From: Candidatus Enterousia sp.
GTDB taxonomy: Bacteria > Pseudomonadota > Alphaproteobacteria > Rs-D84
Length of the DNA stretch: 64,000 bases
Direction: 5' to 3'
NCBI GenBank assembly: GCA_045612805.1
Contig: JAZKZR010000008.1
Location: forward strand, 6,276-70,275
Made by a program: the position numbers and the translations under genes. The notes beneath the pieces were generated by a model. The model worked only from the letters and a program-made list of their open reading frames with translations, did no database searches and was not told where the DNA came from. Shown piece by piece: positions 14,598 to 62,970 of this stretch; within the stretch, counting starts at the first letter, position 1, and each line of letters starts with the position of its first letter.

Positions 14598-14637
14598 AAT
14601 TAGTGGTTAGTGTTAGTGGTTAGTGTTAGTGGGCGGT
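14598..14637. repeat. TTAGTGG heptad repeat block (copy C)
   Basis: ttagtggttagtgttagtggttagtgttagtggg between rpmE and the flavodoxin-like gene. Confidence 0.65.
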
Positions 14638-14638
14638 A

Positions 14639-15154
14639 TCAATACTGGCCGATGCAACCAAGATATGAATTTCCGGTCGATTCAAGGATATTTACAAACT
14701 TGTTCTTATCATGCCCGGCAAACAGTGCAAGTATTGTTCCCGCATCCGTCGCCAACATATCCGCAACGGTTGCGATTTCGGAACTCATTTTCTTGAAAAA
14801 TCCACTTGTTGGGTATATTTCCGCCGCGAACAGTTGGTGTGCCGCACGCCGGCCATGATGCGTTGCGGGCGCGCTTTCAATTACCATCAATTGGCATTCG
14901 GGGGAAACAATAACCTTGTCCGTTATGGCCGCGTCCCCACCCAGCAATTCGCCCCACCAACCGGTTGAACCGCAAAACACAGGGTAATAGATAACCGCAT
15001 CGGGGTGCGTGGCAAAAATATCGGCGACATTTAAATCGCCTGTGACAACTTCTGGCATTGCGCCAATTGCCGCATTTATAACTTTGCGCGCCGTCTGATA
15101 TGTGGTATCGGACTTCGTGCTGTGTGGCCAATAAAGAATCGGAAATCTACTCAT
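14639..15154 (-). CDS. flavodoxin-like fold NAD(P)H oxidoreductase family protein (KefG/MdaB-like)
   Basis: ILYWPHS...S N-terminal pattern and AVIYYPVFCGSTGWW resemble the Flavodoxin_2 family. Judged by eye only. Confidence 0.5.
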   Translation of the reverse strand: MSRFPILYWPHSTKSDTTYQTARKVINAAIGAMPEVVTGDLNVADIFATHPDAVIYYPVFCGSTGWWGELLGGDAAITDKVIVSPECQLMVIESAPATHHGRRAAHQLFAAEIYPTSGFFKKMSSEIATVADMLATDAGTILALFAGHDKNKFVNILESTGNSYLGCIGQY

Positions 15155-15223
15155 TGCTAAGAATTATATCAGATTCGGTGCGAATAAAAAAGGGGGGATA
15201 AAAAAATAAATTTCTTGATTTTT

Positions 15224-16519: not shown

Positions 16520-16583
16520 TTCATTTAATTATACCACAATTTTGCCAAGATGTGATATAAATCGAATTATAAATGTAGGAAGT
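16520..16583. promoter_or_regulatory. divergent promoter region of the membrane-protein array
   Basis: 64 bp AT-rich spacer between P1 (-) and P2 (+). ggtataat sits on the P1 side and gtaggaagt SD on the P2 side. Confidence 0.4.
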
Positions 16584-38889: not shown

Positions 38890-39168
38890 ATGAATACTTT
38901 TTGGGGCGAAATCGTGGGTTATTTATCCGGTGTTTGCACGACACTGGCATTTTTACCCCAGGCAATAAAGTCCATTACCACAAAAAACGTGTCGGGGCTT
39001 TCCCTGTATATGTATATCATATATTGCATGGGGTTGGTGTTTTGGATTCTTTACGGTGTGTATTTGCATTCATTTCAAATAATGTTGTTCAACAGCATTA
39101 CACTGGTGTTCAATGGAATAATATTGTATATGATAATAAAATCTGGAACGCGGCGTAAGAAGAAATAA
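38890..39168 (+). CDS. SemiSWEET / PQ-loop sugar transporter (3 TM, 92 aa)
   Basis: TLAFLPQAIKS PQ-loop motif and 3 TM; SD aaagggg. Confidence 0.75.
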   Translation: MNTFWGEIVGYLSGVCTTLAFLPQAIKSITTKNVSGLSLYMYIIYCMGLVFWILYGVYLHSFQIMLFNSITLVFNGIILYMIIKSGTRRKKK

Positions 39169-39867: not shown

Positions 39868-41073
39868 TTACTTTACTGATTGATTTTTATTTTCGCATTT
39901 TTTGATTGCCGCATTCCAATGTTGACCTTTGCTACAAAGAACACAATTTTTGTATTCCGATGGACTTGATTTCATCCAACATTTTCCAACATTGTGCATC
40001 CCGTCTAACAAATCTTTTGCATACAGCGTATATTCAACACACTTTTCACCGTTGACACCTTGCGTTTTGGTCGTTGCGCACGGAATACATGTTTTATTTT
40101 CATCAAGCCCATAGCCATCTATGCAAGTATATTTTTGGCACGTTCCATCTTTGTATATTTTGTAATTTTCTGTGTAACTAGTTGGTTCAGACCAACCACT
40201 GCACCATCCATTACTAGATTGATTATCGTTGTTGCATTCACAAGCAGTAGCATCGCTGTTTGGCACATAACCATCATAACACAACAATACAGGGCTTTCA
40301 TTTGAATATGCGGAACTTATCCAGCTTTTTATTCCACCACCAGTTTTACTCCGTTGTCCGACAATTTTAATTGGTGCAACCTTTATTCCATGCGCAACTT
40401 TCCCAACAACCCCAAGGACGACATGATCTGTTTTACGGTCTTCATCATCTGTTCCATACTTACTGGTATAAGATATTACTTCCATTTCCGTCGTATGGCG
40501 ATAGGTAGTCCCTGTTTCAGCATAATAACTCGTATATTCTGAGCGTAGATTTGTCCATTTTGGTAACCCGGTAAAATATCCAGTTGGTCCACGTCCCATT
40601 AAACCGCCACCTTGTGAGGCAGGTGTACCTGTCACAGAACACATCTCAGCACCCGGCACCCCACATGTTGCTCCAGTATACCCTTTGACACAGACAGTTT
40701 TGCAATTTTTCCAAACATCGTCGTCATTGTTCCAATAATAATCCAGCCAAACCCAATATTTACCATTTTTATTAGCGGCCTGTATTTGCACTGGGCAAAA
40801 TTCCGCACCGTTATCATAAATTTTTCGTGCCGCCCAGATTATAATCGCCCCTTCGTCATCGTATGTACCATGTCGAACGTGATTTTCGTTTTTGGCAAAT
40901 TCCGCCTCCACGTCCGGATAAAAATCTGTAATACTCGTTGAAAAAGAATTGCTTGCCTTCCACCATGGTGAAACTTGTGTTTTTTGAGGCTCGGGTAACC
41001 AACTTGGGACTTCTGCCCCCATCGCACCGCTGGCCAAGATTATTCCGCAAATTGCAATAATTATTTTTCTCAT
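39868..41073 (-). CDS. secreted Cys-rich protein (401 aa) with CxC..GY..C repeats; family member C
   Basis: Signal peptide MRKIIIAICGIILASGAMGA, plus modules CKTVCVKGYTGATC, CYDGYVPNSDATACEC and CIDGYGLDENKTCIPC. Confidence 0.65.
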   Translation of the reverse strand: MRKIIIAICGIILASGAMGAEVPSWLPEPQKTQVSPWWKASNSFSTSITDFYPDVEAEFAKNENHVRHGTYDDEGAIIIWAARKIYDNGAEFCPVQIQAANKNGKYWVWLDYYWNNDDDVWKNCKTVCVKGYTGATCGVPGAEMCSVTGTPASQGGGLMGRGPTGYFTGLPKWTNLRSEYTSYYAETGTTYRHTTEMEVISYTSKYGTDDEDRKTDHVVLGVVGKVAHGIKVAPIKIVGQRSKTGGGIKSWISSAYSNESPVLLCYDGYVPNSDATACECNNDNQSSNGWCSGWSEPTSYTENYKIYKDGTCQKYTCIDGYGLDENKTCIPCATTKTQGVNGEKCVEYTLYAKDLLDGMHNVGKCWMKSSPSEYKNCVLCSKGQHWNAAIKKCENKNQSVK

Positions 41074-41167
41074 TGGAATTCTCCCTGATTAAAAATCCTT
41101 TCGGGTTTAGCGTAGCAATTTCATATCGCACTTGCAAATGAATTTTTTTTATTTTACAATTAAACTC

Positions 41168-43207
41168 ATGAAATTAAAAAAAGTTTTTCGTTTCTTTCTG
41201 CATGTGATTTTTTGGTGCGTGGTCGCGGGAATTGCCGCGGTGGCCGCGTTGTTTTTGATATATGGTGGGAATTTGCCGGACTATCGGAAACTTGCCACAT
41301 ACGCGCCACCGGTTGCAACCCGGCTTTATGCCGCGGACGGTTCGTTGCTGATTGAATATGCCGAAGAACGTCGCGTGTTTATTGACTTTGAAGATATGCC
41401 GCCGCAACTTGTGAATGCATTTGTCGCCGCCGAAGATCAAAATTTCTGGACCCATCCGGGGATTGATATTCAGGGAATTTTGCGCGCATCGATAAATAAT
41501 TTTATGCGCACACTTGGGTTCAATACGACTTTTACCGGCGCGTCAACCATCACGCAACAGGTTGCAAAAAATTTCTTTCTGTCGTCCGACCGCACGATTT
41601 CGCGCAAGATTAAAGAGGCGATTTTGGCGTTGCGCCTGGAACGCGCGTTTTCGAAAAAGCATATTATGACGCTTTATTTGAATCAAATCTTTTTGGGTGC
41701 GCGCGCGTATGGTGTTGGGTCGGCGGCGCTGATGTATTTTAATAAACCGGTAAAAGATTTAACACTATCAGAGTGCGCGTTTTTGGCATCGTTGCCAAAG
41801 GCACCAAATGACCGCGCGCGCGCCGAAGAACGCCGGAACTATGTGTTGCGCCGCATGGCCGCGGAAAAATATATCACACGCGAACAGGCCGATGCCGCCG
41901 CCGCGGAACCGTTGAACATCAACAGTGGTTTTACCGCACAAATGGAAGATGATTTTCAATACTTTGCCGAAGATGTACGCCGGCAATTGCTAAATCAACT
42001 TGGGCGCGAAACACTTTATAATCAAGGGTTATATATAAAAACAACAATTATTCCGGAATATCAACGCGCCGCGTCCGCCGCGCTAAACAAAGCGTTGGAT
42101 GCGTATAACGAAGGGCGCACGGAAAAATTACAGGGCGCAATTATCGTCATGAATCCGCATACCGGGCGAATACTTGCCATGGCGGGCGGACGTTCATTCG
42201 CACAAAGTTCGTTCAACCGCGCGACCCAGGCGATGCGCCAGATTGGCAGTACGATAAAACCGTTCGTGTATTTGGCGGCGTTGGAACGTGACTTTTCACC
42301 CGAAGGTTTGATTTCGGATACGCCGATTGTTGGGTGGCGTGAAAATAATATGCAATGGAAGCCGGAAAATTACGATAAAAAATTCCTGGGCGATGTGCCG
42401 TTGCGTTTGGCATTGGAAACTTCGCGTAATGTCCCAAGTGTTCGCATGGTTGATAAGATTGGTGTTGAAAATGCCGTAGAGGTTGCAAAACGATTCGGTG
42501 TATATCCCGAAGATATGAATAATTTGAACCTGTCGATGGCACTTGGGTCGGGCGAAACGACACTTGAAAGATTGGTGCTTGGGTATTCCGCGTTTGTGAA
42601 CGGTGGCCGCCGGATTCAACCGAAAATGGTGGACTATATCGAAGACCGGTATGGTAATGTCATCGGCGGCAACAAAACCGAAATTATCGAATGGGTTGAT
42701 GGTATGGAACCCGAACCCGAAGTGGCGGATTCCGAACCTTTGTCCGACCCGCAAAGTTTATATCAATTGGTGTCGATTTTGCAAGGTGCGGTTGAACGCG
42801 GAACGGGACGCCAGGCCGCCGTTGCCGGGCATACAATTGCCGGAAAAACCGGAACGACCAACGATGTCAAAGATGTTTGGTTTGTCGGATTTACAAAAAA
42901 CCTTATTGCGGGTGTGTATTTGGGTTATGACACGCCAAAACCGCTTGGCAAAGGCGCGGGCAGCCATATGGCCGCGCGTGCATTTGCGGACTTTATGACC
43001 GTGGCACTTGCCAACGAAAAGAATCAGCCGTTTGCCGTGCCGGACGGATTAAACTTTGTGCGGGTGAATCGTGCGACCGGTGTTTCCGCCGCCGAAGACC
43101 CGTCGGGCACCATTATTACCGAAGCGTTTAAGCCCGGGCAATATCCAAACCCCGCAAAGGCGAAAACAACCGAACAATCCGATGCGGTTGTCGGTGGAAT
43201 TTTCTAA
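41168..43207 (+). CDS. mrcA: penicillin-binding protein 1A (bifunctional transglycosylase/transpeptidase)
   Basis: GT51 motifs EDQNFWTHPGID and RKIKE, plus the transpeptidase SXXK (STIKP), SRN and KTGT. Confidence 0.9.
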   Translation: MKLKKVFRFFLHVIFWCVVAGIAAVAALFLIYGGNLPDYRKLATYAPPVATRLYAADGSLLIEYAEERRVFIDFEDMPPQLVNAFVAAEDQNFWTHPGIDIQGILRASINNFMRTLGFNTTFTGASTITQQVAKNFFLSSDRTISRKIKEAILALRLERAFSKKHIMTLYLNQIFLGARAYGVGSAALMYFNKPVKDLTLSECAFLASLPKAPNDRARAEERRNYVLRRMAAEKYITREQADAAAAEPLNINSGFTAQMEDDFQYFAEDVRRQLLNQLGRETLYNQGLYIKTTIIPEYQRAASAALNKALDAYNEGRTEKLQGAIIVMNPHTGRILAMAGGRSFAQSSFNRATQAMRQIGSTIKPFVYLAALERDFSPEGLISDTPIVGWRENNMQWKPENYDKKFLGDVPLRLALETSRNVPSVRMVDKIGVENAVEVAKRFGVYPEDMNNLNLSMALGSGETTLERLVLGYSAFVNGGRRIQPKMVDYIEDRYGNVIGGNKTEIIEWVDGMEPEPEVADSEPLSDPQSLYQLVSILQGAVERGTGRQAAVAGHTIAGKTGTTNDVKDVWFVGFTKNLIAGVYLGYDTPKPLGKGAGSHMAARAFADFMTVALANEKNQPFAVPDGLNFVRVNRATGVSAAEDPSGTIITEAFKPGQYPNPAKAKTTEQSDAVVGGIF

Positions 43208-43283
43208 AGCCAAAAAAATTTCTAAATAACATTTCACTATTCAAACTATTGTGATAAAATATAGGCATAAAAAAGGAGAAATT

Positions 43284-44372
43284 ATGCTTACGGATTATTT
43301 GTTATCACACGGGTTTGGATTGTTCTTTGGCGGTTGGACGCAGTTTGGCGCGGCGTTTGGCACGGCGTTTATTATTATGATGCTGTTTGGGCGGCCGTTT
43401 ATTCGCGCGATGCACGCGTGGCAGAAAAAAGGTCAACCGATTAGTGAAAATGTCCCGGAATCGCATCGGCAAAAGGCGGGAACACCGACGATGGGCGGAA
43501 TGCTGATTGTAATTGCGACATTGGTTGGGGCGATTTTGTTTATGCCGGTCGATAGTATGACGGGGTGGATTGCGTTGCTGTCGCTTGTTATGTTTTCAAT
43601 TATCGGGTTTATCGATGACTATAAAAAAGTGACAAGCCAATCGAAAAAGGCATCAAATGGGCTTTCGCCGGCGCTACGTTTGATTGTCGAAGGTGTTTGC
43701 GTTGTGGTGCTTGCGTATCTTATCAACCTGACTATGCCGTCGTATATTCCGGATAATTCGCTTGCGTTGCCGTTTGGAATAATCTTTCCACTTGGGATAT
43801 TTTACTATGTGTTTGCGTATTTTGTTATATGCGGTGGTGCGAACGCGACAAATATCACGGACGGGTTGGATGGAATGTTGGTTAAACTTTATATTCCGGT
43901 GTTGATTGTGTTGGTTGTTGCACTTTATGGTGCAACGCGCATCGGGTTTATGGATACGGTTTTATTTATGCCGGCGACCAGTGGTTTGTACCCGGTCCTT
44001 GGGGCGGTGTTTGGTGCGGTCCTTGGGTTTTTGTGGTTTAATGCGCGGCCGGCGGCGATATTTATGGGCGATGTTGGGTCACTTGCACTTGGCGGATTTA
44101 TGGGAACGGTCGCGATGTTGTTAAAATCCGAAGTCATCATGGGTATTGCGGCGGCGATGATGGTGTTGATTTTGCTGTCGTCATTTTTGCAAACGATGTT
44201 TTTCAAAATCACAAGACATGCAACCGGCACAGGACGGCGGATTTTCCTGCGCGCGCCGTTGCACCATCATTTTGAAGAATTGGGGTGGCCGGAAACGAAA
44301 ATCGTGGATAGGTTTTTTGTATTGTCGATTTTGTTTTCGGGACTTGCGTTGATGTTGTTGAAATTTGCATAA
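43284..44372 (+). CDS. mraY: phospho-N-acetylmuramoyl-pentapeptide transferase
   Basis: SD aaaaaggaga. Conserved NATNITDGLDG and the HHHFE motif. Confidence 0.93.
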   Translation: MLTDYLLSHGFGLFFGGWTQFGAAFGTAFIIMMLFGRPFIRAMHAWQKKGQPISENVPESHRQKAGTPTMGGMLIVIATLVGAILFMPVDSMTGWIALLSLVMFSIIGFIDDYKKVTSQSKKASNGLSPALRLIVEGVCVVVLAYLINLTMPSYIPDNSLALPFGIIFPLGIFYYVFAYFVICGGANATNITDGLDGMLVKLYIPVLIVLVVALYGATRIGFMDTVLFMPATSGLYPVLGAVFGAVLGFLWFNARPAAIFMGDVGSLALGGFMGTVAMLLKSEVIMGIAAAMMVLILLSSFLQTMFFKITRHATGTGRRIFLRAPLHHHFEELGWPETKIVDRFFVLSILFSGLALMLLKFA

Positions 44373-44385
44373 AGGAAAATCGCGT

Positions 44386-45531
44386 ATGTTTAAACGGACG
44401 GAAGAAAGCAAACTTACCAGTTGGTTTTTCGAAATCGATAGACGATTGCTATATATGGTTTTGTTGCTGATGCTGATTGGTATGTTCTTTGCCGTTTCCG
44501 CCGGCAGTGTCGTTGCGTATCAAAAAGGATGGCCGTGGTATACGTTCTTGGTCAAAGGGTTGCCTTTTTATGGATTGGGACTGGTGTTTTTGTTCGGGGC
44601 AAGTTTGTTAAACAAAAAAACGATTTTGAAATTGTCGTTTTTGGATGTTATTGTTGGCCTTGTATTGCTTGCGGTCACATTTATTGCACCGACCAGATTA
44701 AATAATTCCGACCGTTTTATTGTTATTTCGGGTTTGCCCAATATTATGCCGGCCGATATTATGAAACCCGGATTTATTATTGTTACCGCGTGGTTTTTGG
44801 CGGAAATGCACCGGCGGTTTGGTGAAAAACTTTTTACCGCGCGTGACGCGTGGAAATGGCGCGCACCGAATTGGTGGATGTATATTGCGGTGTTTATTCC
44901 GGCATTGGCAATAATTTTCCAACACCCTGATGTTGGCACAAGTTTACTTTACCTTGGGGTTTTGATTTGTATGTTGTTGATTGCGGGATTGCCATGGTTG
45001 GCGGTTGGTGGTATGGTCGGCGCGGGCGCGGGGCTTTTAACACTGGCCTATTATATTGTGCCGCATGTACAAAAACGTATAAACACATTATTTACCGGTA
45101 CCGGTGATAATTTACAGGTCAGCCGATCTGTTCAGTCAATCCAACACGGTGGTTTTTTTGGCAGTGGCGACAACGCGTTCGTCAAAGAAGGCCTGCCCGA
45201 TGCGCATACTGATTTTATCTATGCCGCAATTGTCGAAGATTTGGGCGCGATATTGGCGGTTATTATGTTGTGCCTTTTGATATATGTATTGAAATTGTTG
45301 GTGACGGATGCAATGAACGCACGCGATAGGTTCGTGTTCTATGCGGTTGGTGGCACGGCGGCGCTGTTCGGGATTCAGTGTTGTATAAACCTGGTATCGA
45401 CATTGGGACTGTTTGCGCCAAAGGGTATGACTTTGCCATTTATATCGTACGGGGGTAGTTCGCTGGTCGGATTTTGCCTGCTGTTTGGAATGGTACTTGC
45501 CATTGTGCGCGAAGATAAATGGCGCGGATAA
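44386..45531 (+). CDS. ftsW: SEDS-family lipid II flippase/polymerase FtsW
   Basis: 10 TM SEDS protein directly after mraY. No murD between them. Confidence 0.85.
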   Translation: MFKRTEESKLTSWFFEIDRRLLYMVLLLMLIGMFFAVSAGSVVAYQKGWPWYTFLVKGLPFYGLGLVFLFGASLLNKKTILKLSFLDVIVGLVLLAVTFIAPTRLNNSDRFIVISGLPNIMPADIMKPGFIIVTAWFLAEMHRRFGEKLFTARDAWKWRAPNWWMYIAVFIPALAIIFQHPDVGTSLLYLGVLICMLLIAGLPWLAVGGMVGAGAGLLTLAYYIVPHVQKRINTLFTGTGDNLQVSRSVQSIQHGGFFGSGDNAFVKEGLPDAHTDFIYAAIVEDLGAILAVIMLCLLIYVLKLLVTDAMNARDRFVFYAVGGTAALFGIQCCINLVSTLGLFAPKGMTLPFISYGGSSLVGFCLLFGMVLAIVREDKWRG

Positions 45532-45555
45532 TTTTTTGCCAAAAAGGGGGTCAAA

Positions 45556-46602
45556 ATGAAAATCTGGATTGCAACTGGCGGAACAGGTGGACATGTTTTT
45601 CCGGCACTGGCGGTGGCGGACGAAATTGCCGCACGCGGACATAAAATAATTATTTCTTGCGATGGGCGCGTTCGTAAAATGGTTGCAGACGGCGCACCGC
45701 GCGGTGCAAAACGCGTTCACATTTGGGCGGCGGGTGTTGGCGCAAAAAGTCGCGTACATCAAATGTGGGCATTGTTTAAAATTGGCGTTTCGGCCATCGC
45801 ATTGGTTTTGCGATTCGCGTTCACACGTCCGAACCGGGTCGTTGCGTTCGGCGGATATGCGTCTGTGCCGGCGGTTTTCGCAGCGCATGTGTGGAAAATT
45901 CCAACATACCTGCATGAACAGAACGGCGCAATCGGGCGCGCAAACCGTTTTACCATGCGTTGGGTTAAAACATTGATGACCAGTTTCCATGATGTTTCCG
46001 GAATTCCAAAGAATAAAAATGTGCGCGTGGTTTATACTGGACTGCCGGTGCGGCGTGATTTTATCGAACGCGCGGGCGCACCGTTGCCAAAGAAATCACA
46101 CTTACTCGTGACGGGCGGGTCATTGGGCGCGCAAATCTTGGACGATGTTGTGCCGCGCGCGGTTGCGGCGATGGGCAATAAAAAGATTTTCGTCACGCAC
46201 CAAACACGACCGGAAAATGTTGTGCGTTTGCAAAAATTCTATGCCGACAACAAAATTCACGCAAATGTGTTGTCGTTTATTCGTGATATGGCGGGCGCGA
46301 TTGCGGATTCGGACCTTGTCATCGGGCGCAGCGGGGCCAGCACCGTCGTCGAACTTATGACCATCGGCCGGCCGGCGATATTGGTGCCATTGGCCATCAA
46401 TCCAGACCAGGCGGCAAACGCGGCAAACTATGAAAAATTGGGTGGTGGATTTGCCATAGATCAAAAGAAATTCACCGAAAAATGGTTGTCGGCGACATTG
46501 TCCGAATTGTTTGAAAACGAGGCACGTCTTGAAAAAATGGCAAAGAAATCATTGGTGAAAAACACCGCCGTTGAAATGATTGCAGATACGGTTTTGCGTT
46601 AA
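45556..46602 (+). CDS. murG: UDP-GlcNAc:undecaprenyl-PP-MurNAc-pentapeptide GlcNAc transferase
   Basis: ATGGTGGHVFPALAVA N-terminal motif; SD aaaagggggt. Confidence 0.92.
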   Translation: MKIWIATGGTGGHVFPALAVADEIAARGHKIIISCDGRVRKMVADGAPRGAKRVHIWAAGVGAKSRVHQMWALFKIGVSAIALVLRFAFTRPNRVVAFGGYASVPAVFAAHVWKIPTYLHEQNGAIGRANRFTMRWVKTLMTSFHDVSGIPKNKNVRVVYTGLPVRRDFIERAGAPLPKKSHLLVTGGSLGAQILDDVVPRAVAAMGNKKIFVTHQTRPENVVRLQKFYADNKIHANVLSFIRDMAGAIADSDLVIGRSGASTVVELMTIGRPAILVPLAINPDQAANAANYEKLGGGFAIDQKKFTEKWLSATLSELFENEARLEKMAKKSLVKNTAVEMIADTVLR

Positions 46603-47156
46603 AAACTGTATCCAATCGACAGGCCGGCAAAGTTAAACCCAAGGTTCGTTTCGGTAAAATCGCCGTTCGAAAAGTGCAATGTAAAAAATTCCACACGTGT
46701 ACGTTCGGCAATACGGGCGCCGATGAAAAACTTTTCACCAAAGACCAGGCGACTTGATACCCAACGGTCGTGGTTATCACGATAATACGGTCCAACACCG
46801 ATTCCCGCATAGATTCCGTGCCATGAAATCGGCGCGATATCCCACGAAATTCCACCACCGAAAAATGACAATCCGTCCGCAGAATTGTATGCGATATTTT
46901 GAATCAGATTAAAATTCATACGCGCCGGAAAACGAAAAATTGTCATTGGTTGTGAATACTGGACCATAATTGATGTCATCGGAACGATTTCCCAAATTCC
47001 CGGATACATAAGGTGCAACAGTGAACCTGAACCCGTACTTTGCGCGACATAAATTGACAATGAATTTTCATCCGTATCGTCAAAGAAAACATTGTCCGTC
47101 GCGTTTGCCACACCAAATAAAGTAAAAGCAAAAATTGCAATAAATATCTTTTTCAT
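46599..47156 (-). CDS. outer-membrane lipid A 3-O-deacylase-like protein (PagL family)
   Basis: Signal peptide, HFSNG catalytic His/Ser motif, and a C-terminal aromatic ...SIGYSF barrel signature. Its stop overlaps the murG stop (shared ttaa). Confidence 0.55.
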   Translation of the reverse strand: MKKIFIAIFAFTLFGVANATDNVFFDDTDENSLSIYVAQSTGSGSLLHLMYPGIWEIVPMTSIMVQYSQPMTIFRFPARMNFNLIQNIAYNSADGLSFFGGGISWDIAPISWHGIYAGIGVGPYYRDNHDRWVSSRLVFGEKFFIGARIAERTRVEFFTLHFSNGDFTETNLGFNFAGLSIGYSF

Positions 47157-47259
47157 AATGCGATTATATTGCGAATAAGGTTCATGTGCAATAAAATAAA
47201 CCTATTGACTTTTTTATGTAAAAATACTTACCATAAAGCGCATACAAAAGGGAGAAAAA

Positions 47260-47556
47260 ATGAAAAAGATATTTGTATTGGGAATACTTGTCGGTGCCGT
47301 ATCTGTTTATGGGGCGCGCGCGGAACTTGTCGAAACCGTCACCACCACGGAAAGCGATGTTGTTACGGTTGAAAATCCAACAGTGGCAGAACCGGTTGCC
47401 GAACCAACGGTGGTCGCGGTGGAACCTGTGGCCGAACCGGTCGTTGTCCAAGAAGAATTTGATGAAACAATCGAAGAAGTTGTTCCACCAGAAGAAGAAC
47501 CGGAACCCGAACCAGTAGAAGAATATCCGGTGCCAACCGAAGATATTCCGGATTAA
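47260..47556 (+). CDS. small secreted acidic Pro/Glu/Val-rich repeat protein (98 aa)
   Basis: Signal peptide, then a low-complexity run of (EPVAEP / EEEPEPEP) repeats. Confidence 0.5.
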   Translation: MKKIFVLGILVGAVSVYGARAELVETVTTTESDVVTVENPTVAEPVAEPTVVAVEPVAEPVVVQEEFDETIEEVVPPEEEPEPEPVEEYPVPTEDIPD

Positions 47557-47572
47557 AAATGATATGTAAAAA

Positions 47573-47598
47573 TTACCCGCCGTGTGGCGGGTTTTATT
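47573..47598 (+). terminator. rho-independent terminator
   Basis: acccgccgtgtggcgggt followed by tttatt. Confidence 0.65.
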
Positions 47599-47627
47599 GT
47601 TTACAAAAATTTATAAATCTGATATAA
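47599..47627 (+). promoter_or_regulatory. promoter of the Cys-rich A gene (TTTACA-17-TATAAT)
   Basis: Perfect -10 hexamer and a 5/6 -35 hexamer. The 5' UTR carries a 16 bp perfect palindrome, agttcgcaatcgaact, at 47647-47662. Confidence 0.55.
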
Positions 47628-47706
47628 TGACATGTGATAGTAGTATAGTTCGCAATCGAACTGTGCGGTGAAAGGGTTGGAATTCCGGGACATTTAGGAG
47701 AGTTTG

Positions 47707-49764
47707 ATGAAGAAAAATTCTTTGCAAAATTTTGGCAAAAATGCATTGGGCACGATGTTCTTGCTGGTTGGTGCGTTTTTGGTTTGTTCAACATTTTTAT
47801 CGATGCGGGTTGTGTTCGCCGATCCGATTGGACCGATGCTTGGGAATGACGAAACCGCGGGTGATGGTTTAACACTGGGGTGGCAAAGTCCGCGCAATAG
47901 CACGGGCCGTAATGTTCGCGCAACCGCGCCGCGGCCCACAACCGGGGTGGCCACAACAACCGCAACACGTAATGTTGTGCAACGCCCAACAACCGATATT
48001 GCACGTGGTGCGACCGCACGCGGTGTCGTTTCACGTGAATTGGCGCGCCGTTCTTCGCGCGCGACCGCGCCGACACGCACCGTTCGCGCACGCACCGCAA
48101 CGACAAATCCCGCGCGCGTGTCTTTACAGGGCGATGCAATTCGTGGAACCAAAACCATTAGCGGGACATATTACACATATTTGAACAGCAAACTTTACAC
48201 CGGGAATTACAGCAATATCGTTGATTCTTCGACGGGGCTTATTTCCGCGGACGCGTATAGCAACTGTTTGGAATCGTACTATACGTGCATGGACGAAATC
48301 TGCACCGCCCGTAACGAGGCACAACGCCGTTGCGCATGCGCCGGCCGGGTCAAAGCATTTGCAGAGGCGGAAAATGCACTAAATTCCGCGAATGAAGAAT
48401 TGATTAAAATTTCCGGACAGTTGGCATTGCTGATTGCAAACAAGGGCAAAGAGGTTAGTGCGGCATTCGAACTGACCGATGCAGAAAGGGTTATGAATTG
48501 CGTTTCATGGCGAGAAGCGAGTGATAACGGAACGAATTCTAACAAATTTGGCGATTGGTGCGCGGAACACGGGCTCTTTAGTTCTGGCGGACGTGACGTT
48601 TGTTCATATAATCAGGCACCATCGTATTGCACAAGCGAACAGGTTTATGGGTTTAATGTCGCCAATTTGGATGGGGCTGGGTCTGATATTTTGGCATCAC
48701 TTTCGGCATGGGCGGATGAAGTAAAGGCGAACACCGATACGATTCTGGCGGATAACACAGATTCCGTGTTCCAAGCGATGGAAAATGTGACAACAATTTT
48801 GAATGGAATCGGCGGTTCGACCGCGTCAATAATCAACGAAGAAACACGCGATACACTTGCGGAAACATGGGGATACGATTTGTTCCGCTATGCACATAAT
48901 AATGTTTGTGCACGTGTTTTGGATTCTTGCTTTAACGGAATATACGAAGGTTGTGGCACACCGCCGTCGGGTGGCCGTTGCGCGAACGGTGCAACATCGT
49001 CTTGTCCGTTTAATTACAACAGCAAAGTGACGATTTCTTCGTCTGGCGATGTAAAATTAAACGAACGCAGCAATATCGGCACCGCCGCGAATGCGTCTTG
49101 CTTTGGTTACAGTTCTTCGAACGACCCGTATGAAAACCTGCGTGGACCGGTTGCGGATGCGCGGCGCAGCGTGATGCAAAAATACTTGCTGGATGCGAAC
49201 GCGGATTGCGATTTGTACGGCGAACAGTTAAAGGCAACCGCACAAAAGATTGCATATCAAAAGGTTGCTGCACAACAGGCGTTGCAACAAAAACGGTTAG
49301 AGTTTTATAACAACGAACGCGATGAGGTCTTGTCCAAGGCGACCGCCGCGGGGACGAACTTTAACGAATGTATAAGTGAACTTTGGGATTGTTATGAAAC
49401 CCAGGCGCAGTCAAATGAAAATTGGCCGGATGCGCGTATTAAAACATATTGCGCACAGATTGCAAATGTTCCGCATTGCTATCAAGATATGATTTGCAAT
49501 CCGTCGTATGCACAATTTCGTGCGGTTATTGACAAACCAGATGGTTCTTGTACATGGAACGCAAGTGATTATACATTAAATACTTGTCGTAATATTGTGA
49601 CATTGAACGAGATATTAAATGGTGCCTCGTCAAATTACGGCAATCCACCAATGCCAAATGGTAGTGGTAATTCTGCGGATTTCCGTGAACAATGCCTGCG
49701 TGATGCCCTTGGGTGTCCGGGCGATGGATGTATCCGTAACTGGCGACGTTCCAGTGGTAATTAA
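47707..49764 (+). CDS. large secreted Cys-rich protein, paralog A (685 aa)
   Basis: Signal peptide, an Arg/Thr/Ala-rich low-complexity region, a conserved CLESYYTCMDEICTARNEAQRRCAC block shared with paralog B, a coiled-coil-like middle, and a Cys-dense C-terminus. SD aggaga. Confidence 0.7.
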   Translation: MKKNSLQNFGKNALGTMFLLVGAFLVCSTFLSMRVVFADPIGPMLGNDETAGDGLTLGWQSPRNSTGRNVRATAPRPTTGVATTTATRNVVQRPTTDIARGATARGVVSRELARRSSRATAPTRTVRARTATTNPARVSLQGDAIRGTKTISGTYYTYLNSKLYTGNYSNIVDSSTGLISADAYSNCLESYYTCMDEICTARNEAQRRCACAGRVKAFAEAENALNSANEELIKISGQLALLIANKGKEVSAAFELTDAERVMNCVSWREASDNGTNSNKFGDWCAEHGLFSSGGRDVCSYNQAPSYCTSEQVYGFNVANLDGAGSDILASLSAWADEVKANTDTILADNTDSVFQAMENVTTILNGIGGSTASIINEETRDTLAETWGYDLFRYAHNNVCARVLDSCFNGIYEGCGTPPSGGRCANGATSSCPFNYNSKVTISSSGDVKLNERSNIGTAANASCFGYSSSNDPYENLRGPVADARRSVMQKYLLDANADCDLYGEQLKATAQKIAYQKVAAQQALQQKRLEFYNNERDEVLSKATAAGTNFNECISELWDCYETQAQSNENWPDARIKTYCAQIANVPHCYQDMICNPSYAQFRAVIDKPDGSCTWNASDYTLNTCRNIVTLNEILNGASSNYGNPPMPNGSGNSADFREQCLRDALGCPGDGCIRNWRRSSGN

Positions 49765-49784
49765 AGGTTTTCTGACTTCTATTA

Positions 49785-49811
49785 AAACGGCGCGATGGCG
49801 CCGTTTTTTTA
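49785..49811 (+). terminator. rho-independent terminator
   Basis: cggcgc-gatg-gcgccg hairpin followed by a T7 run. Confidence 0.7.
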
Positions 49812-49858
49812 TTAACCGCCGGCACAAACCGTCTTGCATAAAATTTTCAACAAAACAC

Positions 49859-49886
49859 TTGACTTTTGGTATAAAAAGCGTAGTAT
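49859..49886 (+). promoter_or_regulatory. promoter of rplU-rpmA (TTGACT-16-TAGTAT)
   Basis: Hexamers about 45 nt upstream of the rplU ATG. Confidence 0.5.
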
Positions 49887-49929
49887 TTGCATAAACTTTT
49901 AGACAAAAGTTAAAATAAAAGGAAAAAAT

Positions 49930-50229
49930 ATGAGTGACTTTGCAATCTTTCAAACCGGCGGAAAGCAATATCGCGTAAAGGTCGGTGATGTTATCAAGGT
50001 TGAAAAATTGGATGCGACCGGCGATGTCACATTTGACCACGTTCTGATGTTGGGCGAAACCGTTGGAACGCCAACAATCGATGGGGCGCGGGTCGTGGCA
50101 ACCGTTGTCGAACAAAAACGCGCGCCTAAGGTTTTGGTGTTCAAGAAGAAACGTCGTCAAAACTATCGTCGCACACGCGGTCATCGCCAATTTATAACCG
50201 TGTTGAAAATCAAAGAAATCAAGGGCTAA
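49930..50229 (+). CDS. rplU: 50S ribosomal protein L21
   Basis: [24 protein letters not shown]. Confidence 0.93.
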
Positions 50230-50247
50230 AGTTAAAGGAGTTTAATT

Positions 50248-50514
50248 ATGGCACATAAGAAAGGTGGCGCGAGTACCGCAAACGGGCGCGATTCAGCGGG
50301 ACGCAGATTGGGGATTAAAAAATCCGGTGGCGCACGCGTGATTCCGGGCAATATCATTATTCGCCAACGCGGAACCGCCGTTCATCCGGGTGAAAATGTT
50401 GGTATGGGCAAAGACCACACCATATTTGCCAAGGTTGCCGGCAAGGTTTCGTTCAAACGCGGTTTCCGTGACCGCAAGACCGTATCGGTTATCCCCGATG
50501 AAAGCGAAAAATAA
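50248..50514 (+). CDS. rpmA: 50S ribosomal protein L27
   Basis: [24 protein letters not shown]... Confidence 0.93.
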
Positions 50515-50515
50515 C

Positions 50516-50541
50516 AAAAAACCGCCATTTGGCGGTTTTTT
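50516..50541 (+). terminator. rho-independent terminator of rplU-rpmA
   Basis: aaaaaccgccatttggcggttttttt. Confidence 0.75.
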
Positions 50542-50685
50542 TAGTGTTGGTGTAAGTGGTTGGCGAGGGCGCATTAGCACCCGTCATTCCGCGGCAACGC
50601 GGAATATCATCATTTTATCGTAATTCTATTTTCTCCGAGGCATCCTGCGAAGATACCGCCTTTCGGCGGTATGACGTCACTTTTA
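50540..50685. repeat. composite repeat copy F
   Basis: tagtgttggtgtaagtggttgg ... gtcattccgcggcaacgcggaat ... gataccgcctttcggcggtatgacgtca. Confidence 0.7.
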
Positions 50686-50727
50686 TCTTTTTTCCCTTTT
50701 TGTTTTGTGATATAATTACAGGTGAGT

Positions 50728-53301
50728 ATGAGGGTTTTTACACTTGGATTTTTAATTGCGCTGTATGCGCCGACCACGGTTTGCGTGGCGGCGGTGCCAT
50801 CGCGTGTTATTCCCGGAACAAATGCGACAATGGGTGGCGACAACGCGACCGCGACCGAAGAAAGGTCGGTTGCACCGGTTCGCACGGTTTCTGCAACGCG
50901 GACAACAAATGAAAGTCCCGACCGTGGTGCAATCACACGCAATATCGTTCGCACAATTCCAACAGATACAACACGCGAAGTCCAAACGACGACGCGTTCG
51001 GCGGGGCGCGCGGTTTCCGTGACCCGGTCACAAACGAATAAAGATTCAACGCGCAACAATCTGGATGCCGCGGTCCACAATGTTGGTCGGTCACAGCGCA
51101 CCGAATCCGCAAGTATAAACGCAAATCCGGCGGTGCGGCGTATGGGATTGACGTTGCGCCCATCCACCGCAGAGGTTGGCGGTCGCGCGATATTGGAATC
51201 CGGCGCCCAGACCGGGTCAAATATATCATCGGAAATTGGCAACCTTAGCCCGCGTATCGCGACGGTGCAAACACGTAAAGAAGAAAAATTAGACCCCGCA
51301 TCAATCGCCCAGGCCAAAGAACAATTGGAACAAAAGGCGGCATTGAATAAATCTTGCCAAGACCAATATAACGATTGCATGGACCAATTCTGTGCGGTGA
51401 TTGATGCGAATCAAAAGCGGTGTTCATGTTCGGCGAATTTATCAAAATATGTCGCGGTCGAAGAAGCCGTCAAAGAAGCAAATACTAAACTAAATGAAAT
51501 CGCGCAAAATATACGCTATGTGGGGCTTTCCGCCGATGAAATTACCGCGATTATGTCCGCGACCGAGGCCGAAGAGGCCATGACCGATATCACCGATACA
51601 ACGGAAAATCGCATGTTGTTATCAAGAATCGAACAAATGATAAAAGACCCAAAAACAACAAGTTCTTCGTCGTATGCGGTTGATTCATATGGATTGCTTG
51701 ACATAGATTTAGATTTTTCGTCCGAAGATTTGTCGGATATGTTTAGTTTGGATTTTCTTTCTGGGGCAAATAATGGTTTTTCAAACCTGCGCGGGGGCGA
51801 ATTATACAAGGCCGCAAAGCGTCGCTGTGAAACCGTGATAAAACAATGTCGCGATGTTGGCGCAACAAGTGACCAAATTACCGGCAATTATGATTTGGCG
51901 ATTGATAAAGATTGTATCGCGTATGAACAAGGTTTAACCAAGATGAATGAAACATTGGTATCCAATGTGCGCAGTGCAACGCGTATGCTGCAAAAGGCGC
52001 GACTTGCGGTGTTGCAAAATCAAAATACCTATGACGCGATTGGTTGTATTGGCGCACTTGAAAATTGCATGAAAGACGATATGGTGTGTGGCGACAACTA
52101 TTTCAAATGTATCGACCCGACCAAGAAGTATATCGATGAAAACGGTAATGTTGTTTTGGGGCAAAATATAAACAATATCCAAAAATTTATGGCAAATTAC
52201 AGCAACGCCGAAATCAACAGCACAAAATTGCAACAGGCATACGCCATGACATCGTTGGATGACCCAACCTGTTCAGGAAATAACGCAAATGACGGGCGTT
52301 GCGTGATAAAATACCTGCTAAGCAAAATCGGAACCCAGGCGGACGCGACCGCCGAGGGGCTTTGCCGACCGGTTTTGGATAAATGTCGCGCATATACATA
52401 TGATGACCGTGGCGCATATAAATCATATAACGATATTGTTGTGAACTATGTCCAACGTGCGATGGTGAATATAAGTGCCGCCCAGCATCAAATTGTGGCG
52501 GATTATGCGTCAACATGCCTAAACGATATTGCGACATGTTATAATAACCAGGTTTCACAGATAAATTCTTGGTCGGCGACGGCGGCGGCATCCAGTGTAT
52601 ATAACATTATGCGTGGCGCATGCCGTAATGTCGCCCTTACATGTGGATATGCGGTGTTTTCGGCGGACAGCACCAGTTGCCCCGACACCAACCCAACTAA
52701 GTGCATAGAAAGCATTTCAGAGATATTCTATCAATCGTTGCTCTGTCCGGATAATTCTTTCTATACCACTACACGTGGTTCCATTGCCGCAAATAATCAG
52801 TGGGGGTATGTAAACCCAATGTGTATTTGTAATGATGGGTATGTGGTGTTTTCTGGCCAATGCCTGCCCATATGTCAAGAAGGCGGCTATAACCGCAACG
52901 GTGTTTGCGATTCTAATTTGGCATGCCCAGATCATTCTTATAGCGTATTAAACAACACGGGTAATGTTAATGGTGGCAAATGTCAATGCGATGATTCGTA
53001 TGTCGCGTTTAACAATACTTGTGTCCAATGTCCCGAACATTCACAACCGGTGACATCTGGTGGTGACGCGTATAATGGTGCATGTATGTGCGACGCAGAC
53101 GATGAATATGTTTATATAACACGCAGTAAAACATGCAGAAAATGCCCGCAAAATTCCGACTATGTTCCAGCAACGGCCAATTCAAAGAGTAAATGCCAAT
53201 GCACAACAGAGGGGTATTCGTGGGATAGAATGTTTAATGTTTGTATGGATATGACACCGTCTATTGGTGTCGTTACACCCGGTGGCAATGCTAATGATTA
53301 G
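50728..53301 (+). CDS. large secreted Cys-rich protein, paralog B (857 aa) with C-terminal CxCxDxYV..C..CP repeat modules
   Basis: Signal peptide MRVFTLGFLIALYAPTTVCVAA. KSCQDQYNDCMDQFCAVIDANQKRCSC aligns with the paralog A block. The C-terminus carries 4 tandem ~30 aa Cys modules (CICNDGYVVFSGQCLPIC, CQCDDSYVAFNNTCVQCP, CMCDADDEYVYITRSKTCRKCP, CQCTTEGYSW). An extended -10 TGaTATAAT lies just upstream. Confidence 0.7.
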   Translation: MRVFTLGFLIALYAPTTVCVAAVPSRVIPGTNATMGGDNATATEERSVAPVRTVSATRTTNESPDRGAITRNIVRTIPTDTTREVQTTTRSAGRAVSVTRSQTNKDSTRNNLDAAVHNVGRSQRTESASINANPAVRRMGLTLRPSTAEVGGRAILESGAQTGSNISSEIGNLSPRIATVQTRKEEKLDPASIAQAKEQLEQKAALNKSCQDQYNDCMDQFCAVIDANQKRCSCSANLSKYVAVEEAVKEANTKLNEIAQNIRYVGLSADEITAIMSATEAEEAMTDITDTTENRMLLSRIEQMIKDPKTTSSSSYAVDSYGLLDIDLDFSSEDLSDMFSLDFLSGANNGFSNLRGGELYKAAKRRCETVIKQCRDVGATSDQITGNYDLAIDKDCIAYEQGLTKMNETLVSNVRSATRMLQKARLAVLQNQNTYDAIGCIGALENCMKDDMVCGDNYFKCIDPTKKYIDENGNVVLGQNINNIQKFMANYSNAEINSTKLQQAYAMTSLDDPTCSGNNANDGRCVIKYLLSKIGTQADATAEGLCRPVLDKCRAYTYDDRGAYKSYNDIVVNYVQRAMVNISAAQHQIVADYASTCLNDIATCYNNQVSQINSWSATAAASSVYNIMRGACRNVALTCGYAVFSADSTSCPDTNPTKCIESISEIFYQSLLCPDNSFYTTTRGSIAANNQWGYVNPMCICNDGYVVFSGQCLPICQEGGYNRNGVCDSNLACPDHSYSVLNNTGNVNGGKCQCDDSYVAFNNTCVQCPEHSQPVTSGGDAYNGACMCDADDEYVYITRSKTCRKCPQNSDYVPATANSKSKCQCTTEGYSWDRMFNVCMDMTPSIGVVTPGGNAND

Positions 53302-53365
53302 TCGGTTTCACTACCAAAACCCGCGCCATTTGGCGCGGGTTCACTTACACTAAACACTTTCAATA
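53302..53365. repeat. partial composite repeat copy G, containing the ppdK terminator hairpin
   Basis: cactaccaaaa ... aacccgcgccatttggcgcgggtt ... cacttacactaaacactt (inverted-orientation heptad relatives). On the minus strand the hairpin is followed by a T-run. Confidence 0.55.
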
Positions 53366-56034: not shown

Positions 56035-56231
56035 GGTGTCTCCTTTTTTTATTGTTATTATTTTTGCGAAGCAATTTTTCAAAAAAAAATTCACGATTGC
56101 AACGAAAAATATTTTTATTTTGATTTTTTTGTGGTATAATATATGTATACAAAACAACAACAAACAAAGGTCTGCGTTCAATGCGATAAAACGTGTTGAT
56201 GCAGATTTTTTATTTTTAATCAATTTTATAC

Positions 56232-62301: not shown

Positions 62302-62970
62302 TTAACGACCGGTGTTTGCAATATCGGCAATCGGCACCCCCGCATTTATTGCCGCAAGCCGGGCCTTTTTTGCCGCACAACTTCCAAGTTCTGATAAATG
62401 TTCCGATAAAACCTTGCCACGACGTTCAATAAAGTTTTTATATCGTGGATTATTAATTACATTTATTTTATCCCCAACGCCATCCGCAATAAGTTCATAT
62501 TTATCTTCGCCATTGTAATAAATTTTCCACTGGTCAACCTGTTGAACTACGGAATCTATATTGGCCATACTGCGATAATAACGACGACGTATAACATCTT
62601 CGGGAACATCGTGCCCACCAAGCGCAACACGTTGTTTAACACGCGCAATATTTTGTTCCAGTGACGCCAATAGCACATAAACAAAAATTATTTGATACCC
62701 GTTTTCACGTGCTTGCTTTATATAATTATTGTTTCCCGAAAGTGTCGTTTCAAAAATAAAAGAATCGTGTGTAGAAAATAATTCTTTCATTTTTTGTAAA
62801 ACGATACGACCGGCAACCTGGGGGCGAACATTGTTTTCGCGCTGAACATCGTCGGTATTAAGAAATTTTATTCCCGGATTTTCACCGATAATTTCCCGTG
62901 CAAGTGTGGTTTTACCCGAACCATTAGGCCCCGCAATAAGATAAAGAATTTTGCTGTTATAAATTTGCAT
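62302..62970 (-). CDS. zeta-toxin-family P-loop kinase-like protein
   Basis: Walker A LIAGPNGSGKTT and a ...LGGHDVPEDVIRRRY region typical of the Zeta_toxin / AAA_33 kinase fold. No adjacent antitoxin-like gene. Confidence 0.55.
   Translation of the reverse strand: MQIYNSKILYLIAGPNGSGKTTLAREIIGENPGIKFLNTDDVQRENNVRPQVAGRIVLQKMKELFSTHDSFIFETTLSGNNNYIKQARENGYQIIFVYVLLASLEQNIARVKQRVALGGHDVPEDVIRRRYYRSMANIDSVVQQVDQWKIYYNGEDKYELIADGVGDKINVINNPRYKNFIERRGKVLSEHLSELGSCAAKKARLAAINAGVPIADIANTGR

Follow-up and report, generated by a model that had tools for sequence, protein, structure and literature searches.

Two cysteine-rich proteins flanking rplU-rpmA in Candidatus Enterousia as candidate disulfide-bonded envelope scaffolds, one with a strain-variable tail

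We analysed a 64,000-nucleotide stretch of the Candidatus Enterousia sp. genome (assembly GCA_045612805.1, contig JAZKZR010000008.1, positions 6,276 to 70,275 of the forward strand; hereafter the window), in which two large cysteine-rich proteins, A and B, are encoded on either side of the ribosomal protein genes rplU and rpmA, and a smaller one, C, is encoded separately. With moderate confidence, we read A and B as Sec-exported, fully disulfide-bonded scaffolds of the envelope or cell surface, in which a basic arm would tether a disulfide-stapled core and the core of B would show strain-variable cysteine modules outward. C would be an independent, hypervariable protein under similar selection. 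Export, the disulfides themselves, surface exposure, anchoring by the arm and a binding function are what we infer from the patterns described below. A and B belong to no described family or fold, although their general kind (secreted, disulfide-rich and modular, with variable exposed parts) is familiar. An earlier note on this DNA had described the three as one family of secreted proteins with eukaryote-like cysteine modules; all three of its open reading frames (ORFs) are present in the ORF list (Table 1).

Cysteine pairing and layout of A and B

After removal of the signal peptide, the number of cysteines was even in all 113 A homologs (range 24-54), in 108 of 109 B homologs (28-47) and in 25 of 26 homologs of C (14-24). 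Because the counts are even across such varied totals, cysteines seem to have been gained and lost in pairs. Where exported proteins favour even numbers of cysteines, this is taken as strong evidence that disulfides form (PMC2823432), and all mature cysteines of the window's three proteins appear to be in disulfides, giving 13 pairs in A (26 mature cysteines), 20 in B and 9 in C. Given the variety of totals, coincidence is an unlikely source of the even counts. A role of the cysteines in metal clusters was judged unlikely, since there is no Tat motif and the counts are even.

The spacing of the cysteines is also non-random. The core of B contains eight Cx6C motifs against 0.96 expected from shuffled sequences, a number that none of 20000 shuffles reached, and A contains four overall against 1.27 expected (P 0.03). 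The B motifs are CQDQYNDC, CETVIKQC, the three consecutive pairs of CIGALENC-MKDDMVC-GDNYFKC, CRPVLDKC, CLNDIATC and CRNVALTC, and all 16 of their cysteines are invariant in 86 homologs; those of the A motifs are invariant as well. Most of the Cx6C cysteines lie within helices of the AlphaFold2 (AF2) models. Because the spacing is i, i+7, both cysteines of a pair would fall on one helical face, and we infer that the pairs staple neighbouring helices by disulfides, in the manner of twin-CxnC hairpins.

A and B share a common layout of signal sequence, basic disordered arm of ~100-150 residues, CMD block and acidic, mostly helical, cysteine-rich core. As had been proposed, A, B and C each begin with a hydrophobic segment followed by a plausible signal peptidase I site, as judged by inspection (in C, between ...AMGA and E). 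The signal sequence of A is unusually conserved, with L19, L20, A23, F24, S28, T29, S32, R34 and A38 invariant in 85 homologs, and residues 5-34 are helical in the AF2 model. The N-terminal regions previously noted as rich in Arg, Thr and Ala are indeed basic (net charge +12 in the arm of A and +7 over residues 23-190 of B) and predicted to be disordered, with predicted local distance difference test (pLDDT) values below 40 (24-40 in the arm of B). Within the arm of A, RxVxx[RT] motifs recur at residues 68, 88, 105 and 124, and R88, V90, R93, R105, V107, R110, R124, V126 and R129 are invariant. The linear motif that follows the arm of B has many invariant columns in 86 homologs, and mean identity over residues 120-189 is 76%. 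Both cysteine blocks quoted in the earlier note are present, at A187-211 and B210-234. The cores carry net charges of -21 (A) and -17 (B), and their long AF2-predicted helices correspond to the coiled-coil-like middle that had been described.

No lipobox ([LVI][ASTVI][GAS]C) was found by inspection at the end of the three signal peptides, which contain FLVC (A), TTVC (B) and IAIC (C) at residue 9; the signal-peptide cysteine is not invariant in A or B homologs. A lipoprotein reading of A, B or C was rejected because the lipobox is absent. Pfam and NCBIfam gave no match to an autotransporter barrel or other translocator domain, the C-termini being cysteine modules or short tails, and an autotransporter or outer-membrane-anchored adhesin was rejected because there is no C-terminal beta-barrel.

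In the model that we favour, A and B would be made with a Sec-type signal sequence and then exported. The disordered Arg/Thr-rich arm would tether the protein to an acidic component of the envelope, whether lipopolysaccharide (LPS), peptidoglycan or a partner protein. The CxxxYxxCMDxxC...RCxC block comes after the arm, and in the acidic alpha-helical core the Cx6C pairs on one face would let neighbouring helices be disulfide-stapled into a conserved, protease-resistant scaffold or stalk. The C-terminal display region, predicted in B to be four 4-cysteine beta-hairpin modules, is swapped between strains as a cassette, and longer relatives have it replaced or extended by further cysteine modules or Listeria-Bacteroides repeats. 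Such a tail could be exposed and, differing from strain to strain, act in binding or as an antigen towards a partner cell, host mucus, immunoglobulin A (IgA) or phage.

The variable tail of B and protein C

The modules of the B tail have the form CP[DEQ][NH]S-x9-21-CxC-x3-5-Y-x6-7-C-x2 and start at residues 673, 733, 768 and 806. Their period is 35-42 residues, with a first module of ~60 residues that includes a 17-residue insert. The earlier note had proposed tandem modules of ~30 residues in both B and C; the four units of B are tandem, but their period is longer, and the CxDGY-type motifs of C are scattered. In all, 121 B proteins yielded 233 distinct modules. Conservation of the cysteines is periodic in an alignment of 60 of these, where the first cysteine, the proline at position 2, the CxC and the last cysteine are invariant. 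The number of CxC..aromatic..C units per tail ranges from 1 to 4 among 120 listed homologs, and two A orthologs, P0192 and P0204, have acquired C-terminal extensions of cysteine modules. The tail is the sole confidently modelled part of B (block-mean pLDDT mostly 76-88), and the predicted stack of short beta-hairpins is compatible with small disulfide-knotted modules in general.

Comparison with L084, a strain contig that carries the B homolog P0006, delimits a cassette. BLASTN places the DNA breakpoints at 52757/52758 and 53316/53317. The flanks are 96% identical over 50678-52757 and 92% identical from 53317 on, where the terminator and the gene for pyruvate phosphate dikinase (PPDK) lie. The 5' junction falls at residue ~677, within the conserved LLCPDNS motif. 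Relative to the window's B, P0006 is 99% identical in the core and 33% in the tail, P0010 96% and 33%, and P0003 91% and 92%. Because the tails of P0006 and P0010 have diverged while that of P0003 has not, the history of the tail is incongruent with that of the core.

The same C-terminal position accepts other domains. Among 11 long members of the B superfamily that were scanned, five (P0274, P0271, P0272, P0277 and P0282) carry Flg_new, the Listeria-Bacteroides repeat, above the Pfam gathering score downstream of the core, and a further member, P0312, is named a TIGR02543 repeat protein by the Joint Genome Institute (JGI). Since long relatives carry these repeats there, the C-terminus of the superfamily looks like a modular display position that takes surface-type domains. 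In the window's own A, B and C, Pfam found no Flg_new (PF09479).

C is a secreted-type protein with 18 cysteines in its mature form. It shows no significant similarity to A or B by BLASTP (E 0.012 and 0.69) or in profile-profile comparison by hhalign (probability 3% with B and 8% with A), and there is no local cross-match of hidden Markov models (HMMs). Membership of C in the A/B superfamily was rejected on these three negatives, so the proposed family of three reduces to A and B, which are paralogs of common architecture (97% by hhalign). The C family is small and fast-evolving, comprising 26 proteins of 27-76% identity. In the window and in both other contigs examined, its gene is divergent from mrcA, which encodes PBP1A, and lies beside mrcA-mraY-ftsW.

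The positional ortholog of C in RGIG2769 (L003) illustrates its variability. A and B of this genome are 96% and 87% identical to those of the window, and the C ortholog, P0263, is just 32% identical. The DNA is 95% identical from mrcA to 41014, exactly the end of C's 20-codon signal peptide, and 88% identical over the tRNA genes. The C-terminal module is nearly unchanged in P0248 and P0249, which are otherwise 41-43% identical. C is probably a distinct secreted protein, rich in disulfides and hypervariable, whose place beside mrcA is fixed, and the keeping of its signal peptide and last module alone between strains points to the same kind of selection as on the B tail. On another contig (L082), GIY-YIG endonuclease-like genes (4513-4878 and 6272-6550) stand on both sides of the C ortholog and might promote recombination at this hypervariable locus; none adjoin C in the window.

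The swapped cysteine-rich segments of B and C suggest exposed binding or antigen surfaces. The earlier proposal that these are candidate surface or secreted interaction proteins gains circumstantial support from the cassette replacement of the B tail and C body and from the Listeria-Bacteroides repeats of longer relatives.

Family relations and genomic setting

A and B align directly over ~80 residues only, A185-264 with B208-286 (BLASTP E 2e-9), and over this block hhalign gives a probability of 97% and E 8.4e-11. Full-length paralogy was rejected at the level of direct alignment, as nothing beyond these ~80 residues aligns. Homology reaches further through intermediates, because one ORF on a more distant alphaproteobacterial contig from a metagenome-assembled genome (MAG; L081, GCA_964576135.1) is hit by the B profile (E 1.8e-30, B positions 211-482) as well as by that of A (E 9.6e-14). 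Judged by these alignments, A and B are ancient paralogs. L081 encodes three paralogs of the A/B superfamily within 10 kb, with family members at 13221-15527 (-) and 16549-18067 (+) among housekeeping genes (CcrM-like methyltransferase, ParC/GyrA, SecG and IF-1), so the family is multi-copy and clustered in some genomes. A local search found no further A/B paralogs within the 64-kb window.

For A and for B alike, over 1000 homologs share 55-100% identity; without exception they are unnamed or "hypothetical" and lack Pfam domains. Searched exhaustively, the B family profile returned 660 clusters (50% identity) at E<=1e-3, of which 225 were at E<=1e-30, with lengths up to 2338 residues. The CxxxYxxCMDxxC...RCxC block followed by a helix is the family hallmark and lies near residue 200 in most of 149 representatives. 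With one genome scanned per species, B relatives turned up in 281 species genomes. With a superfamily of this size and spread, the earlier statement that such modules are rare in bacteria finds no support. Our locus-level comparisons cover 80 loci listed out of these 281 genomes. They come from MAGs of uncultured organisms of the rumen and gut, most of which bear the label Alphaproteobacteria or Candidatus Enterousia, with a few Rickettsiales or evidently mislabelled entries, and include a complete 716-kb chromosome.

A and B are genetically linked. The gene order (PagL-like)-A-rplU-rpmA-B is found in ~45 of the 80 loci, so that the flanking of rplU-rpmA noted earlier is true of the window and of these relatives. 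In L037 and L058 A is directly adjacent to B, and in L065 A and B both come before rplU and rpmA, in that order. An old tandem duplication is a plausible origin of A and B. The earlier idea of a duplication around a core operon is to that extent sustained, but the event would be old, as just ~80 residues still align. GC content at the A/B locus is unremarkable.

Homologs of rplU and rpmA are 74-100% identical and occupy the same position in related loci, and an ortholog contig gives the Pfam matches Ribosomal_L21p and L27. Because hairpins follow A and rpmA, it seems that A, rplU-rpmA and B are each transcribed as a unit of their own. Each of A and B had been assigned its own promoter. The consensus scan supports the site upstream of A; the TGaTATAAT before B is present and would leave a leader of ~5 nucleotides if used, but the scan calls no full promoter there. 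An Rfam scan returned three tRNAs only, with no ribosomal-protein leader near rplU and no family in the rpmA-B spacer. At least two further inverted repeats were seen by eye in this spacer of ~210 bp (50542-50727), attccgcg-gcaa-cgcggaat near 50587-50606 and ataccgcc-tttc-ggcggtat near 50653-50672.

The left side of rplU differs in L084. The rplU-rpmA-B region of this strain is 96-100% identical to the window, yet similarity ends at 49831, just past the terminator of A. In place of A, rplU is preceded in L084 (273-1289, set against 48400-49830 of the window) by a gene for an unrelated 338-residue secreted protein, MLKKILLASMF...KAYVDTKIETKQ... The break at 49831 makes the left side of rplU another point of rearrangement or recombination. 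Further upstream, the PagL-like gene, of the lipid A 3-O-deacylase family, adjoins A in most related loci in either orientation. Between it and A, a 98-residue ORF (47260-47556, +) encodes a signal peptide followed by very acidic, low-complexity sequence rich in Val, Pro and Glu. This ORF is syntenic in the closest relatives (L001, L003 and L005-L007), and its product could be a counter-charged partner of the basic arms of A and B.

Database comparisons place A and B in no named family. Pfam-A, which includes Furin-like, EGF, VSP and Ephrin_rec_like/GCC2_GCC3, gave no family at E<=1 for full-length A or B; full-length C was likewise without a Pfam match, and NCBIfam gave nothing at E<=1 for any of the three. 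Searched alone, the B tail gave two sub-threshold Pfam matches, the EB module (E 0.04, 14.4 bits, cutoff 24.3) and Pvs28 EGF (E 1.3, 9.6 bits, cutoff 26), and a C-terminal fragment of C gave cEGF, also below threshold (E 7.8, 6.9 bits, cutoff 26.6). At E<=10, the B tail, C fragments and the longer homologs P0023, P0204, P0192 and P0055 together returned just sub-threshold or compositional Pfam matches (EB, Pvs28, cEGF and HC2). The 60-module profile found nothing below E 1 among all PDB sequences and no EGF, furin or TNFR chain at E<=10, and the A, B and C family profiles found nothing significant there. Foldseek against the PDB gave no match at E<=0.001 for A or B. With the whole model as query, the best hit for B was weak, the four-EGF protein Pfs25 (E 0.13, TM-score 0.22), and the best for A had E 0.6. 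Entries for ClyA, colicin, glypican, clusterin, a trypanosome receptor and a Babesia surface antigen were not taken as evidence. The furin-like, EGF-like or eukaryote-like label of the earlier note thus describes, as far as the sequences tell, a resemblance of cysteine spacing rather than demonstrated membership. Nor do A, B or C match an ordinary bacterial family such as an adhesin or peptidase in Pfam, NCBIfam or the PDB sequences.

Enterousia belongs to order Rs-D84, for which one study reports genomes of 0.67-1.6 Mb that lack a respiratory chain, the tricarboxylic acid (TCA) cycle and standard transporters; these bacteria are thought to be partner-dependent (PMC12306168). A 92-residue PQ-loop/MtN3 (SemiSWEET-like) protein is encoded at 38890-39168 (+; Pfam E 5e-12), which is of note in a lineage reported to be without standard transporters for sugars (PMC12306168). 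At 15224-21815, five tandem genes (431, 522, 406, 485 and 426 residues; the first lies on the minus strand) code for polytopic membrane proteins, distantly paralogous to one another (m1-m3 E 2e-10, m4-m5 E 6e-10, m3-m4 7e-4). By layout they recall the tandem VirB6-like arrays of Rickettsiales, but they have no Pfam match at E<=1, TrbL/VirB6 included. The 3' neighbour of B is a convergent gene (53377-56223, -), a long ORF for what is, from its sequence, an apparently full-length PPDK, with homologs 91-100% identical across the lineage. A separate 412-residue ORF (26296-27534, -) matches only the AMP/ATP-binding domain PPDK_N, and a 222-residue ORF (62302-62970, -) matches the kinase-like domains Zeta_toxin and AAA_33 (E 1e-10).

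Table 1. Coordinates in the window of the A, B and C genes, their predicted protein regions and neighbouring features.
Feature	Position	Strand	Details
C ORF	39868-41073	-	401 aa, 19 Cys
C signal-peptide codons	41014-41073	-	aa 1-20, MRKIIIAICGIILASGAMGA; nearly invariant in family
C hypervariable body	40056-41013	-	aa ~21-339; no BLASTN similarity to RGIG2769 positional ortholog
C conserved C-terminal module	39935-40055	-	aa ~340-380, ...LYAKDLLDGMHNVGKCWMKSSPSEYKNCVLC...; 89% DNA island vs RGIG2769
PagL-like outer-membrane beta-barrel gene	46599-47156	-	Pfam PagL E 4.4e-12
Terminator-like hairpin	47575-47592		just before A's promoter-like site
Promoter-like site upstream of A	47600-47628	+	TTTACA-17-TATAAT with TG; 11/12 matches (consensus scan)
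A ORF	47707-49764	+	685 aa, 27 Cys
A signal sequence	47707-47820	+	aa 1-38; hydrophobic N-terminus; cleavage site by inspection, between ...VFA and DP
A basic disordered arm	47821-48168	+	aa 39-154; R/T/A-rich; pLDDT 25-32
A block common to B	48259-48498	+	aa 185-264; CLESYYTCMDEICTARNEAQRRCAC plus following helix
A Cys-rich, mostly helical core	48499-49764	+	aa 265-685; includes 94-residue predicted helix
Terminator-like hairpin after A	49784-49807	+	10-bp stem then T-run
rplU	49930-50229	+	between A and B; ORF call
rpmA	50248-50514	+	between A and B; ORF call
Hairpin directly after rpmA	50516-50541	both	symmetric A6-stem-T6; terminator-like
Extended -10-like TGaTATAAT	50708-50716	+	read directly; 11 nt upstream of B ATG
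B ORF	50728-53301	+	857 aa, 41 Cys
B signal sequence	50728-50799	+	aa 1-24; by inspection and alignment, between ...VAA and VPSR
B basic disordered arm	50800-51084	+	aa 25-119; T/R/S/A-rich; poorly conserved, mean identity to homologs 38%
B conserved linear motif in disordered region	51085-51222	+	aa 120-165; GRSxRTEAASINANPAVRRMGLTLRPSTAEVGGRA...TGSN
B helical Cys-rich core	51295-52743	+	aa 190-672; 8 Cx6C motifs; AF2 helices, pLDDT ~55-85
B block common to A	51349-51585	+	aa 208-286, inside B core
B variable tail	52744-53301	+	aa 673-857; four tandem 4-Cys modules, predicted beta-hairpin stacks
B recombination cassette	52758-53316	+	no BLASTN-detectable similarity to L084

Alternative readings and biological meaning

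Several points weigh against reading A and B as surface scaffolds. The proteins show no feature for outer-membrane translocation or anchoring, whether autotransporter barrel, lipobox or sorting motif. The window has genes for LptD, LptF/G, SurA, the PagL-like protein, PBP1A, MraY, FtsW and MurG, and the organism is therefore a diderm with LPS and peptidoglycan. In such a cell a Sec-exported protein is periplasmic by default, which leaves the crossing of the outer membrane unexplained. None of the scanned window ORFs of at least 150 residues encodes DsbA/DsbB or VKOR; since the lineage also lacks a respiratory chain, the oxidant for 13-20 disulfides per protein is unexplained. The even-cysteine homologs are phylogenetically related rather than independent, and their counts carry no formal probability. 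Hypervariability of the B tail could reflect relaxed constraint together with recombination. Finally, the AF2 models are mediocre (mean pLDDT 60 for B and 56 for A), which makes the helical-hairpin picture a prediction, and A, B and C are known here from sequence and models.

The main rival is a structural role within the periplasm, which is a real, if lesser, possibility. A and B would then form a disulfide-cross-linked scaffold running from the inner membrane or peptidoglycan to the outer membrane, and the tail would be a weakly constrained spacer that is not exposed at the surface. A Sec-type signal is indeed the only export feature found in A and B, the basic arm could bind peptidoglycan or LPS, and the neighbouring genes, namely the PagL-like gene and the mrcA-mraY-ftsW-murG cluster, serve the cell envelope. 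The core is also highly conserved in every genome of a lineage with ~850 genes. Against this, the sharp cassette swaps of the tail, and tails that are better conserved than the cores in some pairs, favour selection over drift, and the Listeria-Bacteroides repeats seen in relatives are a typical feature of proteins exposed at the surface. The chlamydial OmcA/OmcB models in Pfam, which describe envelope proteins of this kind, find no match in A or B.

Two further readings have little support. It is improbable that A and B are secreted as effectors or toxins, with a conserved helical region that would serve in delivery or pore formation and a polymorphic C-terminal domain that would give specificity, as in alpha-pore-forming toxins, colicins and polymorphic toxins. 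Long helical bundles are predicted, a conserved N-terminal part is joined to an exchangeable C-terminus, and Foldseek lists chains of ClyA, SmhB, colicin Ia and a Tc toxin, but at E 4 to 10, which is not significant. No toxin gives a significant structural or HMM match, the tail consists of small cysteine modules and not of a catalytic domain, and twenty disulfides would impede membrane insertion. The polymorphic-toxin version was rejected because Pfam finds no toxin domain in the tail and the gene downstream of B is the convergent PPDK gene, with no immunity-like gene there. Slightly less probable still is true homology of the tail modules to the EGF, furin-like or GCC2_GCC3 repeats of eukaryotes, with the modules gained from a gut protist or animal host by horizontal transfer and mimicking host ligands or receptors: the motif CxC..[YF]..C-x2-CP..S resembles CxxCPxG[TS]Y-type repeats, beta-hairpin stacks are predicted, and the EB (E 0.04), Pvs28 (E 1.3) and Pfs25 (E 0.13) matches lean that way, but nothing reaches a curated threshold, the module profile retrieves no EGF, furin or TNFR chain from the PDB at E<=10, the modules are carried by a core known from bacterial MAGs and themselves occur in hundreds of clusters from bacteria, and the GC content of the locus is ordinary.

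We return to A and B as putative exported scaffolds, with an outward-facing, variable tail in B, a picture for which several known systems offer partial parallels. Like the cysteine-rich surface proteins of protists (Giardia VSP/HCMP and the EGF arrays of Plasmodium Pfs25/Pvs28) and GCC2_GCC3 or furin-like repeats, B is a putatively secreted protein with modules of ~35-40 residues that contain CxC, CxxC(P) and an aromatic residue. Predicted beta-hairpin stacks, strain variability and an anaerobic gut carrier add to this likeness. B differs in having no transmembrane or glycosylphosphatidylinositol (GPI) anchor and no significant HMM or fold match, in its motif (CP[DEQ][NH]S rather than the CPxG[TS]Y of GCC2_GCC3-type repeats), and in that its modules are appended to a conserved helical core seen in bacterial MAGs only.

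For the core, the closest parallels are Helicobacter Hcp proteins (Sel1-like repeats), CHCH proteins (Cx9C) and small Tim proteins (Cx3C), in which helices with fixed-spacing paired cysteines on one face form disulfide-stapled helix pairs; Hcp proteins are secreted by a host-associated bacterium. In A and B the spacing is Cx6C, Pfam finds no Sel1 or CHCH match, the proteins are much larger, with a probable 13-20 disulfides, and the stapling is predicted. Chlamydial OmcA and OmcB are likewise exported, disulfide-cross-linked envelope proteins of reduced-genome, host-dependent bacteria, a likeness that depends on the predicted disulfides of A and B; A and B have no sequence match to them, the predicted fold is helical and the organism keeps its peptidoglycan synthesis genes.

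The pattern of variation recalls Mycoplasma Vlp/Vsa, Neisseria pilin/Opa and phage tail-fibre tips, where a conserved 5' end and flanks enclose a hypervariable body or tip that is swapped at sharp junctions. A, B and C are not lipoproteins and are unrelated to these in sequence, and in the window we saw neither silent arrays of cassettes nor invertible elements nor repeats. As for the Listeria-Bacteroides repeat (Flg_new/TIGR02543) surface proteins, longer members of the B superfamily carry the repeat at the same C-terminal position; the window's B has cysteine modules there and its A has no tail.

These findings concern a lineage that recurs in gut and rumen metagenomes, with genomes of ~0.7-1 Mb, but whose mode of interaction with other cells is not known (PMC12306168). 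The locus comprises two large lineage-restricted proteins retained in many genomes and one hypervariable protein, and their probable obligate disulfides, their swapped tips and the surface-type repeats of relatives make these the most concrete candidates for interaction machinery in the lineage. They also mark an annotation gap, in that the B-profile superfamily, with its 660 clusters at 50% identity, has no Pfam or NCBIfam model, and they raise a redox puzzle, as a non-respiring anaerobe would have to oxidise 13-20 cysteine pairs per protein. In metagenomes, strains could be typed by their tail and C cassettes. More speculatively, and doubtful at present, A and B with C as an accessory may be building blocks of an undescribed disulfide-cross-linked surface coat or attachment structure that docks Rs-D84/Enterousia cells, in which respiration, biosynthesis and standard transporters are missing, onto a partner cell or host surface. 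If so, an unrecognised oxidative-folding route in a non-respiring anaerobe would be implied, and specificity for partner or host, or evasion of IgA or phage, would lie with the swappable tail in B and the swappable body in C.

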